64,000 bases of DNA from Mustelus asterias (lineage: Eukaryota), in assembly GCF_964213995.1 (NCBI RefSeq), contig NC_135821.1, positions 78,492,001 through 78,556,000 on the forward strand. Direction: 5' to 3'. The notes under the pieces are model-generated. The model was not told the DNA's origin. It worked only from the letters and a program-made list of their open reading frames with translations, and searched no databases. This document shows positions 22,079 through 51,737 of this stretch, one piece after another (position 1 is the stretch's first letter; each line of letters starts with the position of its first letter). Made by a program: the position numbers and the translations under genes.

Positions 22079-23767
22079 AAAGGTTAAAAAGAGAAATGTA
22101 TAGGTTAAAAAAAGCAAGAGAAGATGGCCATGCTAAGCTGGCAGCTAGAAGGACCGGGGCCTTTTCACACTGGAGTCTGACAATTCCGGGCCTCTGCACA
22201 TGCACAGTGGCCCCGAACTATCAGCCTCCCATTTGCTGGCCAGCCCGTCCCAGAACACCCCGATCTCCAGCTTCCCACCCCCCAGCAGTGATAATCCCCC
22301 CACCCTCCCCCCCAGCAGACACCCCCCACCACTGGAGGCAGATACCCCAGCAGACCCCCCCCACCACCACTGACCGCTCCGCCCCCAGCTCACCCCGATT
22401 GTTGGCCTCCCTCCAGTCCTGCCCATTCCCCATGAGGAGTGGCAGCAGGATGCCCGGCAGCAGGATGCCCCGCCCCAGTTGGCCCCACCTCCAGGCCCCA
22501 CTCCCTTGGCATTGCCCCATGCCCGATGGGCAGTGCCAAGGTGTCTCCTGGGCATGGGCACTTTGCCCATGGGCAGTGCCAGGGGGCCCAGGCTGGCACG
22601 GCCAGGGTGCCCATGCCGAGGGCGCATCAACTCCCTGACGCCGACCCCAGGGGGGGGGGGGGGGGGGGGGGGGGCCTAATGGCCCCCTCTTCACTCCAGC
22701 GGGGTCTCCCACTACTTCCCAGAAAGTGGGGAGCTAATCTGAACCCCATCAGAGTGAAATTGTACTGGCAGGGTGGGAGATGCTAGTGGGCCCGGAAACT
22801 TCAGTCCCGGGCCCACTAATCACATTTAAATAACATTGAAATAAGATTTAAATCACTTACCTGCTGTTCCCACCGGTTTCCAGCATGGTCCCGATTGTGC
22901 CAGATAGCCGGCACTCGGAGATGTGCACACGGCGGAAATGCATGCGCAAATCCCGCGAATCGGCCCATGCGATGGGAGAATTGCCCCCCATAGAATCTAG
23001 AAGGAGGAGGAGGCCATTCGGCCCTTCGAGCCTGCTCCGCTATTCATTTTAATCATGGCTGATCATCGAATTCAATATCCTGATTCCCCCCTCCTTCCTC
23101 CCGTATCCCTTAATCCCTTTAGCCCCAAGAGCTATATCTAATTTCTTCTTGAAATCAGACAACGTGTTGGCCTCAACTACATTCTTACATTGCTGCGGTT
23201 CTGGAGTCATATGTAGGCCAGACCAGGTAAGGACAGCAGATTTCCTTCCCTAAAGGACATTAGTGAACCAGATGGATTTTTACAACAATCGACAATGGTT
23301 TCATGGTCAAGAGTAGATTCTTAATTCCAGATATTTTTAACAGAATTCAAATTCTACCCAAATTCTACCATCTGCCATTGCGGGATTCGAACTCAGGTTC
23401 CCAGAACATTAGCTGAGTTTCTGGATTAATAGTAATACCCCTAAGCCATTGCCTAGACAAGAACAACAATGAGACAAAGAGGATGCAACAGATGAACAGT
23501 ACTTAAAAAGGAACAGAACCATTGGAGTGGAGAACACACAAGCCGGACAAAAAACAGGAAATGACTCAATGGCAGGAGTGATATTTGCATAATGAGAGAA
23601 GCAAAATAAATTAGAATCATTAGTGACTATGGGAAATGTTTATAAATTAAAGGAGATTGTTACTTCTGGGAATGGACAAGAATTATGAAAAAGTGGTAAA
23701 AGCTAAAATAAATACCAGCTCTGACGAAGGGTCATCCAGACTCGAAACGTTGGCTCTATTCTCTCTC

Positions 23768-24000
23768 GATGTGGAGATGCCGGCGTTGGACTGGGGTGAA
23801 CACAGTCAGAAGTTTAACAACACCAGGTTAAAGTCCAACAGGTTTATTTGGTAGCAAAAGCCACAAGCTTTCGGAGCCTTAAGCTCCTTCGTCAGGTGAG
23901 TGGGACACCTGAAGAAGGAGCTTAAGGCTCCGAAAGCTTGTGGCTTTTGCTACCAAATAAACCTGTTGGACTTTAACCTGGTGTTGTTAAAACTTCTTAC
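23768..24000. mobile_element. Mini palindromic family-A Penelope insertion inside a family-B terminus
   Basis: Tail plus perfect inverted repeat with a hammerhead core on each strand. 13-bp TSD TCTATTCTCTCTC (23755-23767 / 24001-24013). Confidence 0.9.
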
Positions 24001-24557
24001 TCTATTCTCTCTCCACAGATACTGTCAGACCCACTGAGATTTTCCAGCATTTGTTTCTGATTATGAGAGTAGTGTTATTTGCTTTTCATAGGTGTTGCAC
24101 AAAGTAACATGGTGACTCAATTATAACATCACATGATGTGTTTATAGACAAACATAAAGAGGTGTCTAACACCTTCCTATGATAATGATGTTTCTCTCTG
24201 TCAGTGATTATGATACAAACAGCTATTACATCCACAGAGTTGTTGGCCTCGAAATTCAATGCTGCTACAGCTATTTTCTGGCAGTTTAAAGTTTATTTAT
24301 TAATGTCATAAATAGGCTTACATTAACACGGCAATGAAGTTACTGTGAAAATCTCCTAGTCACCACACTCCAGTGCCTGTTTGGGTACACTGAAGGAGAA
24401 TTTAGCACGGCCAATGCACCGAACCATGTCTTTCAGACTGTGGGAGGAAACCTGAGCACCCGGAGGAAACCCACGCAGACATGGGGAGAACGTAACAGAC
24501 TCTACACAGTGACCCGAGCCGGGAATGGAACCTGGGTCCCTGGCAGTGCTGACCACA

Positions 24558-24905
24558 GACTTGCAGTCCTGCTCAAATCACTTAACTGAGTCTCCCACTG
24601 GCTGTCCTATACTGTACAGGGCAAAAGGACATGGGATAGATTATCAAAATAAGGGGCAGTCCTTTAAAATATGAGACAGTTGGTCACTCTGCCCTGTGCC
24701 CAGTTTGTGCCCCTGGTGCGAGGTGTTTGAATGGAATATCATGCACTGTGGCTTTGGTTGTTATGTCAAGTTGTATTTAAACATGTCAAAAGAACACACA
24801 TTATTAATTATCAGTCGTGCCTGACATGTTTTTGTGGTACAAACTTTCTGACAAAGCAAGCTTGTCTATTTATAATCATGTTCCTTTTCAGCTGTTTGGC
24901 ATGCA
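24558..24905. repeat. Local direct duplication, copy 1 (copy 2 at 29647-30010)
   Basis: About 350 bp align base by base with few substitutions; both copies end at TGTTTGGCATGCA. Confidence 0.9.
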
Positions 24906-49317: not shown

Positions 49318-50600
49318 GCATCTGTGGACAGAGAGAAAGAGTTAATGTTTCATGCTTAATATGACCTTTCTTCGAAACTATTCCAATGCTTTCCTGGTGC
49401 CTCCCATTTCCATCCAACTCTATAAATTTAAATTCATTCAAAATATTCTGTAGACGGAGTCAATGGATGGGAGGCTGGTTTGTGTGATGGACTGGGCTAT
49501 ATTCATGTTTTGTAGTTTCTTGCCGTCTTGGTCAGAGCAGGAGCCATACCAAGCTGTGATACATCTGGAAAGGATGCTTCTTCTTCTATCTCATTCTTTA
49601 CAACTACAAATTTCACTCTTCTATATTAATGGCTTTGTAATTGATTTTTAAAAATCCAACATTCTCTTTCAGGACATTAAAAAGTAATCAGCCCATTCTT
49701 ATCAACGGATTTTGATCTCAAAAATGCTTAAATCCAATGCGAAAACTAAAATGATAAATGCGGCATTTCTCATACACCAGGCAGTGTCTGAAACAGAGAG
49801 AGTCTGGTTCCCCTTGTCTGTCTTTTTACTGTCCGAAAGAAAGGTTTTTGAGCAAGATATCAGACATGCCCTGGAATGCAATCCCAGATATTGGAGGTCT
49901 GATTATAATAAGTTCACTTTCCTATTTTGGTGTCTTACGATGTGAATATGTTCATAGAATCATAGAATTCTACAGTGCAGAAAGAGGCCATTCGGCCCAT
50001 CGAGTCTGCACCAACCACAATCCCACCCATGCCCCATCCCCATATCCCTACATATTTACCCACTAATCCCTCGAACCTTTGCATCCCGGGACACTAAGGG
50101 ACAATTTTTAGAATGGCCAATCAACCTAGCCCGCACATTTTTGGACTGTGGGAGGAAACCGGAGCACCCGGAGGAAACCCATGCAGACACGAGGAGAATG
50201 TGCAAACTCCACACAGACAGTGACTGAGCCGGGATTCGAACCCACGTCCCTGGAGCTGTGAAGCAGCAGTGCTAACTACTGTGCCGCCCTGTTATGTGCT
50301 GTAGATAAAATTTGAGAAAATCCATTGACTGAATGTCTCCCTGCCGAGTCTGGAAAAGCAACAATAGATGATGAACACTTAGAAGCCTCACAAACGTTGG
50401 TCAGACCACACTGGGACTACTTCATACAATTCTGGTCATCATGTCATAAAAAGGAGGCACTGGAGTGGGTGAAAAAAGATTTCCAAAGATGATACCAGAA
50501 TTGCAGAGGCCAACATATCAGGAAAGCATAAACAAGTTGGTAAAAAAACCAAAAGAGAAAATGCTGGAAAATCTCAGCAGGTCTGGCAGTGTCTATAAGG

Positions 50601-50664
50601 TAAGAAGTTTAACAACACCAGGTTAGTAAGAAGTTTAACAACACCAGGTTAAAGTCCAACAGGT
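50601..50664 (-). mobile_element. Abortive family-A Penelope insertion (two tandem starts) in a family-B terminus
   Basis: (G)TAAGAAGTTTAACAACACCAGGTTA twice. TSD TGTCTATAAGG (50590-50600 / 50665-50675). Confidence 0.85.
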
Positions 50665-51737
50665 TGTCTATAAGGAGAGAAAAGAGCTGACGTTTCGAGT
50701 CTAGACGACCCTTTGTCAAAGCTTAAATGCAGAGAAAATGGGAGATGTTTATACTGCAGGGTGAGGGAGTGAAAGATGAGTCATAGCCACAGAAACCAGG
50801 GAAACCAGTTAATAGCGTCCACAGAGAATGTGTGAATGGCCAAACGGCAGAGAAGCTAAAATGTTGTTGGTGGTGGTGGTGGTGGGGGGGCGGGGGATGG
50901 GGCAGAGGTAAGATTTAGAAAAGGAGACGCAAAGGGGAAGAAAAGGGAAGGGGTGGAAAGTAGGGGGAAAGAGTGGAGGGGGAGGAAGAAAAATGAAGAA
51001 AGACAATAAAGGAATAAAAGGTAGAGAACAGTAAAAAATTAAAAATAGAATGAAAACAAAGAGGTCGAGGTGGGGTAGAGCAAATCATCTGAAGTTGTTG
51101 AATTCAATGTTGAGACCGGAAAGCTGTAAAGTGCTTAGCCAGAAGATGAGATGCTGCACAATATAAACAAATTGGGTCTCTTTAAAGAGGTGACCAAATA
51201 TTGTGCAGCAGCTCAGAGAACATTTCTTAGAGAACAAAAGTGTTCTCTAAAATTATGGTACGTTTTGATACAGTAGGCGCAGAATCTTTTCAGAGCAAAA
51301 CTAGAGACCACCATTTCAAAACTGACACCAAGAAAGCAAATAGGGAATTCCAAAGAAGCTTATTTACCAATTGTGGTGGAAATATAGAATATGCTGACGC
51401 AAACATAGAATTTCACAAAGCACTTTACGGCCAAAGAAGTACTTTTTGAACTGTAGTCAAAGTTGTAACATAGGAAATGTGGCTTCCAATTCATTCACAG
51501 CAAGTTCACATGCACCAACAGGCATCTGATTATCACCAGAAAATGTTTTGGTGATGTTGATTGTGGCATAAATGTTGGCAGGGGCAACAATATGATTCCA
51601 CTGCTCTTCTTCCAAGTAGTGCATTGGGATCTTTTACATCCACGTGAGAGGACAATCAGAACCTCGGTTTAGCATCTCATTTAAAAGATGGTGTGACAGT
51701 GTAGCACTCCCCGCAGTCCAGCACTGCCTTGATTTCT

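Follow-up and report, generated by a model that had tools for sequence, protein, structure and literature searches.

How Penelope-like elements choose their targets is poorly resolved. The Penelope-like protein PAc, from the Poseidon element of Anolis carolinensis, nicks and extends both strands, prefers ATT, and has been modeled as a dimer (PMC11167929); a CX2-5CxxC linker has been hypothesized to be the source of the microsatellite bias of Neptune-clade elements (PMC8557442); and GIY-YIG domains read short cleavage motifs (PMC12774661). Transposons that prefer other transposons as targets are also known (PMC6719617). Here we describe a 64,000-nt stretch of the Mustelus asterias genome (contig NC_135821.1, positions 78,492,001 to 78,556,000 of the forward strand; hereafter the window), in which three of the eight insertions of a Penelope-like family with a GIY-YIG endonuclease (family A) lie at nearly one position in the hammerhead-bearing terminus of a second family (family B). 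The explanation that we favor, with a probability of about 0.62, is that family A is a Neptune-like shark Penelope whose endonuclease has a short, purine-rich cleavage preference and that the B terminus is a hot spot because of its sequence and not because of its ribozyme.

Family A encodes, in order, a reverse transcriptase (RT; PF00078, E = 1e-10 on 48303-49346), a CHSNLCKTC linker, and a GIY-YIG domain that holds two cysteines; PF01541 matches the 20473-20856 fragment with E = 5.5e-5, the 47378-48391 piece gave no Pfam match, and a VVY...YIG motif was read downstream of the RT. The two cysteines lie between GIY and YIG (VVYLIRCKKGCPEAWYIG) and are followed by histidines in HRST...GEHF, the former being the arrangement by which the CCHH type is defined (PMC8557442), and CHSNLCKTC is a linker of the CX2-5CxxC form, which also occurs in some form in Nematis and Naiad (PMC8557442). 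By the definitions of that paper, and as judged from its translated sequence, family A counts as a Penelope-like element of the endonuclease-positive kind, and its linker is of the Neptune type. Neptune-clade elements share with it the RT followed by a C-terminal GIY-YIG domain with two cysteines, the linker, pseudo-long terminal repeats (pLTRs) with a minimal hammerhead, the tail, the inverted 5' segments, and possibly a bias for simple-repeat-like sequence (PMC8557442). However, the Neptune bias is toward microsatellite arrays that obscure the target site duplications (TSDs), whereas family A has clear TSDs and a nick phased to a hexamer, and its placement in the Neptune clade is tentative, suggested by the linker. 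PAc resembles family A in cutting and extending both strands, in having two RT start sites that give a tail, in its short cleavage motif, in nicking its own pLTR, and in the dimer model, but its preference is for the AT-rich ATT (PMC11167929), whereas the motif of family A is the GA-rich SRSAGA. Penelope and Poseidon are described without the linker finger (PMC8557442), which family A has as CX4CxxC.

Tx1L of Xenopus, which inserts into Tx1D, likewise places one transposon at a defined position inside another, but it is described as stringent, with a highly specific endonuclease (PMC1950540, PMC6719617), whereas five of the eight family-A copies lie outside B. With only three of eight in B, family A is far from the stringent pattern in which nearly all copies occupy one site, and in its behavior it is closer to the elements with short consensus sites that are called “promiscuous” (L1: TTTT/AA; PMC1950540). 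Pen2a_Av inside Pen3 of Adineta vaga is, like the insertions described here, a Penelope in a Penelope, with a 9-bp TSD, a tail, and an inverted pLTR, but it is a single case whose description, in the part available, holds no recurring position or motif (PMC3846280), whereas family A recurs. PLE-X of Selaginella, found in 28S rDNA, is a position-precise Penelope-like insertion in a multicopy target but, unlike family A, is endonuclease-less, targets a host gene, and is apparently stringent (PMC8557442). A literature search, with most subscription papers and Repbase entries outside its reach, found no report of a SASAGA-type motif or of a recurring Penelope-in-Penelope site.

Family-A insertions were located throughout the window by BLAST and TSD searches, which gave the following eight.

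23768-24000, minus strand: insertion 1, hairpin-type copy, antisense to B; TSD 23754-23767 / 24000-24013
47031-49317, minus strand: insertion 2, 5'-truncated copy, sense to B; TSD 47022-47030 / 49318-49326
50601-50664, minus strand: insertion 3, short fragment with an internal duplication, sense to B; TSD 50590-50599(600) / 50665-50674(5)
19976-21212, plus strand: copy outside B with inverted arms and an endonuclease fragment; TSD 19964-19975 / 21213-21224
20095-20276, minus strand: A-in-A insertion, inside the copy at 19976-21212; TSD 20084-20094 / 20276-20286
45408-46822, plus strand: copy outside B, the exception to the motif; TSD 45396-45407 / 46823-46834
51738-51947, plus strand: copy outside B; TSD 51728-51737 / 51946-51955; motif 4/6 (GGCAGT), with a 1-nt shift
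60201-60380, plus strand: older hairpin copy outside B; degenerate 15-bp TSD; motif 6/6 (CAGAGA), boundary uncertain

The TSDs, 9 to 15 bp overall, are perfect in seven of the eight (9 to 14 bp); the eighth (60186-60200 / 60378-60392) has 3 mismatches in 15. Insertion 2 carries the RT (PF00078), with one frameshift near 48300-48390, the CX4CxxC linker, the GIY-YIG endonuclease, and the 3' pLTR.

A profile of B termini run across the window gave nine loci with 10 copies of the site at which A is found (its center is called the caret below, as in TCTCTC^CACAGA), 3 of them occupied by A; these are the loci that matter here.

23708-24070, plus strand: terminus interrupted at the caret by insertion 1; hammerhead core at 23721-23751, with CTGACGA / stem II / GAAAC read directly and a stem II that folds
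46948-49383, minus strand: terminus interrupted by insertion 2; own TSD 46931-46943 / 49379-49391
50532-51162, minus strand: copy interrupted by insertion 3, with the last 25 codons of its open reading frame (ORF; 51085-51162), 3' untranslated region, and hammerhead terminus; own TSD 50528-50540 / 51163-51175
21429-21572, minus strand: uninterrupted terminus, motif present on each strand at 21513^21514; an unoccupied hot-spot site
54965-55105, plus strand: uninterrupted terminus (control); TSD 54958-54969 / 55074-55085
57812-57997, no strand assigned: uninterrupted hairpin copy (control); TSD 57799-57812 / 58004-58017
25092-25219, plus strand: older uninterrupted terminus with a degenerate caret site

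B termini cover 1135 of the 58297 non-A bases (1.95%), or about 2.7% by hand when the 430-bp upstream part at 50730-51162 is added.

The three A-in-B insertions have the TSDs CTCTATTCTCTCTC (14 bp), GCATCTGTG (9 bp), and TGTCTATAAG(G) (10 to 11 bp). In the alignment of B copies, junctions 1 and 2 fall on the caret, TSD 1 ending and TSD 2 beginning there, and junction 3 falls two columns 5' of it; the distances from the predicted hammerhead cleavage site to the junctions 3' of it are 16, 17, and 14 nt for insertions 1, 2, and 3. Under uniform insertion, the probability of finding at least 3 of 8 insertions in B is 3.9e-4, and that of 3 hits within a 3-nt span of 140 is 9e-4 (both uncorrected, the window having been picked from many). 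Because the three B hosts are only 75 to 83% identical to one another, have unrelated outer flanks, and show differing TSDs, we concluded that these are three independent insertion events. An earlier note on this DNA had placed three of eight A insertions in termini of family B, which covers only a few percent of the window, with TSD 1 ending at the caret, TSD 2 beginning at it, and TSD 3 within about 3 nt, so that the junctions map to nearly one position on both strands, and had added a fourth copy in a family-A pLTR (20095-20276). These claims are borne out by our searches, the junctions lying within 2 nt of one site with insertion 1 antisense and insertions 2 and 3 sense; its figure of about 16 nt from the ribozyme cleavage site holds only as an approximation.

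To read the target, we took the junction at the 3' end of each element as the nick, as under target-primed reverse transcription, and read the nicked strand 3' of it. Target-primed reverse transcription is established for non-LTR elements. It has also been shown in vitro for PAc (PMC11167929). On this basis, the primary nick of insertion 1 would lie on the B plus strand, 5' of CACAGA, and those of insertions 2 and 3 on the B minus strand, 5' of GACAGA and of GAGAGA, the last being two columns from the caret. All three sites read SASAGA ([CG]A[CG]AGA; S is C or G), and this motif, defined from the three B junctions alone, was then scored at the five non-B sites, which read CACAGA (6/6), CAGAGA (6/6, uncertain TSD), CGCAGA (5/6), GGCAGT (4/6), and GTAATG (2/6). 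Three of five sites at 5/6 or better has a P of 4.6e-4 and the summed motif score a P of 2.8e-5, both against the window background with the same boundary ambiguity, in a test that was not blind, all eight sites having been seen beforehand. The nick stands in exact register with the motif (at least 5/6) at five of the eight maximal TSD edges.

The second nick tells a similar story: SAGA stands at +3 in two of the five non-B sites (P = 0.001). CGCAGA and TGCAGA stand 3' of the two predicted nicks of the copy at 19976-21212, and CACAGA and AACAGA stand 3' of those of the A-in-A copy. At the exceptional copy, 45408-46822, the motif scores 2/6 at the nick, and a perfect GACAGA lies 7 nt away; its TSD at 46823-46834 resembles A's own tail extension (ATGA..ACC), and homology may have assisted priming there. 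The nick sites of A are short TC/TG-like runs of two to four units, without arrays. As a control, none of the five 3'-end nick sites of B's own insertions reached 5/6 when shifts of 0 to 3 nt were allowed, so that the motif seems to be characteristic of A. At these five B sites (23682, 46931/49391, 50528/51175, 54958, and 57799/58017), the letters that follow are pyrimidine rich (TCTTGT, TCCTGG, GTCTCT, TCTGTT, and TGTTGC), hinting, from five sites only, at a nick preference that differs from A's.

Inverted 5' segments occur in five of the eight family-A copies. In the hairpin-type copies (19975-21224, 23768-24000, 20095-20276, 45408-45485, and 60199-60300), the inverted segment stops at the inner RT start site, and each of the two junctions thus has the appearance of a priming event (twin priming from both nicks), which matches the both-strand extension demonstrated for PAc.

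The B terminus is unusually rich in the motif. Its site TCTCTC^CACAGA reads SASAGA from the caret on both strands, back to back, which explains, without the ribozyme, why the insertions share a position and come in two orientations. All three perfect two-strand SASAGA sites of the window are in B, as are 20 of its 199 SASAGA sites (10%, five times B's share of the sequence). One intact B copy has 11 NNSAGA sites, 5 of them no more than 2 nt from the caret and a further one 12 nt downstream. If the motif is written as a pair, TCTS-N14..16-SAGA, 17 of 57 matches (30%) are in B, and insertions 2 and 3 have a partner half-site 1 to 2 nt further out; such a paired site would fit a dimeric enzyme like that modeled for PAc. 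The part of the protein that has been implicated in the PAc dimer, the N-terminal region, does not occur in the window.

We then looked for A-B junctions in contigs from sequencing runs. The window is represented at 0.95 to 0.97 of sampled words in three sequencing runs, and contigs of 4 of the 24 listed runs were aligned to 21045-21610, which spans an A 3' end and an intact B: X22 and X23, which are one sample of the window's organism, and X1 and X9, which are relatives. The A and B termini drew more than 100,000 contig records per run. Alignments are broken by 2 nt that the reference B copy has inserted beside the caret; some joints go uncounted, and repeat-repeat junctions assemble poorly. 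Family-A 3' ends in the contigs fall at 21166-69 and 21203-09 and family-B 3' ends at 21428 and 21465. Among the best 15 joints (1258 more), 14 connect an A 3' end with a B 3' end, with an undefined spacer in between. Because these are split between B's two ends roughly as loose ends are, we read them as co-occurrence on contigs, direct adjacency also being possible. Among the rows listed with intervening letters, 3 of 12 (407 more) are A-B junctions, all from X22, and none equals a junction of the window. Contig junction rows carry no strand, so that their fit to the caret assumes the same strand. If so, 21166 to 21508 would be the far TSD edge of an insertion-2-like event, with the nick 5' of a downstream G[CT]CAGA, as the paired model predicts; 21212 to 21516 would lie within 2 nt of the caret; and 21526 to 21069 would be the far TSD edge of an insertion-1-like event. 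The contig junctions are consistent with a recurring site and argue against an overwhelming one (occupancy is not measurable here).

The junctions, the TSDs, the motif at the junctions, its density in B, and the domain anatomy, all observed in the window, would be explained as follows. The GIY-YIG endonuclease of A would nick directly 5' of [CG][AG][CG]AGA (core SAGA at +3 to +6). Reverse transcription would be primed by the 3' end so released, at one of A's two RNA start sites, often with 1 to 2 nt of microhomology, and a second nick on the other strand, 9 to 14 nt away, would give rise to the TSD. With its back-to-back motif and a further copy about 10 to 12 nt downstream, the B terminus would be a very abundant hot spot, nicked on either strand at almost the same position and favored for its motif richness, not through recognition of B as an element or of its ribozyme. 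Three parts of this account are inferences: that it is the endonuclease that sets the motif, the order of the two nicks, and the reading of two inward-facing half-sites by a dimer. A phased, GA-rich motif with clean TSDs would make both the linker hypothesis and the dimer model testable, and on this explanation apparent element-in-element targeting can arise from motif density alone, which calls for caution with nested insertions in general.

Several points weigh against this explanation. There are only eight insertion events, and the motif was first noticed by eye on all of them, before side and width were fixed, so that the leave-B-out test was not blind; if the degenerate-TSD site is dropped and a 3-nt shift is allowed for every site, two of four non-B sites match (P = 0.024). 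One non-B site does not match at all well (2/6) and another is weak (4/6), and two of the five B control insertions score 5/6 at their 5'-end nick with a 2-nt shift. None of the best 15 contig joints (1258 more) is at the caret. Finally, the hexamer predicts only 10% of insertions in B, leaving a residual P of 0.026 (at least 3 of 7) or 0.039 (at least 3 of 8), and the GTTAAA subfamily has three of its five copies at the B site, for which the hexamer model gives P = 0.009. Because of this residual excess, a longer, B-favoring recognition site is conceivable. The paired motif 14 to 16 nt apart, or regional co-occurrence, would each be enough to remove the excess, but the definition of the paired motif is post hoc, its count is raised by matches that overlap, and no partner half-site stands at insertion 1.

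It is on the residual excess that true B-directed targeting draws. Here A, or its GTTAAA subfamily, would read a longer site (about 20 to 25 bp, possibly bipartite and bound by a dimer), of which the B terminus is the best match, selected as a safe landing site as Tx1D is by Tx1L, whose endonuclease is of the L1/APE type. The GTTAAA copies, the confinement of every perfect two-strand site to B, and the fit of all three listed A-B contig rows to the caret zone speak for it. However, three of the five insertions outside B use the same short motif, the B copies that were hit are just 75 to 83% identical, junction 3 is shifted by 2 nt, and the caret joint is missing from the best 15 contig joints, and we regard B-directed targeting as rather unlikely. 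Were it true, a Penelope example would join the short list of transposon-targeting transposons. The proposal of the earlier note that one element parasitizes another is supported only in part: as sequence-directed nicking but not as B-specific targeting. A related and equally doubtful version is that a dimer of this Neptune-like shark Penelope reads two inward-facing TCTS...SAGA half-sites 14 to 16 nt apart, whose spacing also sets the TSD length, and that the lineage has specialized on the B hammerhead terminus, where it inserts 5 nt upstream of B's probable start codon or splice acceptor; if so, insertion would disable full-length B copies.

Alternatively, A and B may share a regional preference, gathering in the same domains, where a weak dinucleotide-repeat bias lets A drift to B's only TC/GA run. 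The four free A copies are unusually close to B, the nearest B being 75, 114, 673, and 2203 bp away (P = 0.0066), and in the two regions to which A and B copies are confined 31% of motif sites belong to B, so that 3 of 7 insertions in B would be unremarkable (P = 0.38, the regions having been chosen afterwards). The prevalence of A-end to B-end joints among the best contig joints and the microsatellite bias reported for Neptune (PMC8557442) point the same way. A loose repeat bias would not be expected to produce exact motif register at five of the eight maximal TSD edges, however, and the A sites are two to four dinucleotide units and not arrays. As the sole cause we consider regional preference improbable, but it can add to the short cleavage preference as well as replace it. 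All A and B copies lie within 19-26 kb and 45-61 kb of the window, with none in 0-19 kb or 26-45 kb, and three of the free A copies point their 3' end at the 3' end of a B copy 75 to 673 bp away.

Guidance by structure or RNA is very unlikely. It would require that A recognize the hammerhead fold in exposed B DNA or that the 3' end of A RNA pair with B through the 8-mer TCTCCACA, which the two visibly share across the caret, and all three sites do lie 14 to 17 nt 3' of the predicted cleavage site. Yet this distance is variable, whereas the junctions stay in register with the motif; insertion 1 runs antisense to B; and the non-B sites have no hammerhead at that distance, the A-in-A site lying 5' of A's own hammerhead, not 3'. 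The B hammerhead regions, moreover, fold no better than shuffled sequences (z of -0.3 to -1.1). Annealing through the 8-mer would delete A's terminus, whereas junctions 1 and 2 keep the full terminus with a 0- to 1-nt overlap, and insertion 3 uses the inner start site, without the 8-mer. We therefore rejected both a fixed distance from the ribozyme and 8-mer annealing, on the grounds of the variable spacing and the intact A termini. The earlier note had invoked sequence- or structure-directed targeting by the endonuclease; the former is supported, in the form of sequence-directed nicking, but not the latter. Descent of the three composites from one ancestral A-B chimera, which that note rightly thought unlikely, has only the shared position in its favor and is effectively excluded by the differing TSDs, two orientations, different A lengths and start sites, divergent B hosts, and unrelated flanks.

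Family B has a minimal hammerhead terminus of the kind described in PMC4209133, two 3' ends (the tail), a hairpin copy, and variable TSDs, all of them Penelope-like features. The 25-residue ORF end is its only coding part in the window; it resembles A's C terminus by eye but was not recovered by tblastn of the window with A's ORF. An ATG with a pyrimidine tract and CAG in front of it stands 5 nt downstream of the caret, in a frame open for 27 codons in the copy near 21 kb, an arrangement resembling a splice acceptor plus start codon. In the A pLTR, CTGANGA/stem II/GAAA is conserved across copies, stem II folds, and there are two 3' ends about 37 nt apart. An Rfam scan of the window recognized the hammerhead in neither A nor B, and its microRNA hairpins on inverted repeats are spurious. 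A's long 3' end can reach 9 nt past CACATC (ATGACTACC; 21204-21212), and contig joints reach 21210-21212; this extension is possibly an ORF start.

The intact relative of the family-A protein, P0001, has 643 amino acids and is 83% identical, and named relatives come from the cartilaginous fish Heptranchias, Scyliorhinus, Mustelus, and Chiloscyllium. The shark protein isoforms P0005-P0008, P0011, and P0012 include family-A endonuclease sequence at 73 to 97% identity, through either exonization or a gene-model artifact. A PDB sequence search found no relative, and a 25-nt family-A pattern had no matches in viral, metagenome, and prokaryote contigs. The 120 viral-contig loci matching a 14-nt pattern were attributed to chance, none of 121 loci aligning to A over more than 22 nt, and the distant locus L001, found with the endonuclease query at 26% identity, was not used.

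Elsewhere in the window, 1-420 and 5871-6653 (minus strand) are two tandem genes that lie 6089 bp from each other and share 97% identity over 300 nt; the second has a complete 260-amino-acid frame, and from their sequence features we take them to be connexin-like. Long frames of long interspersed elements with endonuclease- and RT-like translations, presumably CR1-like, lie at 31097-34681 (minus strand) and 13653-14894. A degenerate tRNA gene or pseudogene lies at 37062-37133 (Rfam RF00005, 54.5 bits), and a tRNA-like short interspersed element (families D1/D2) is present in at least seven copies.

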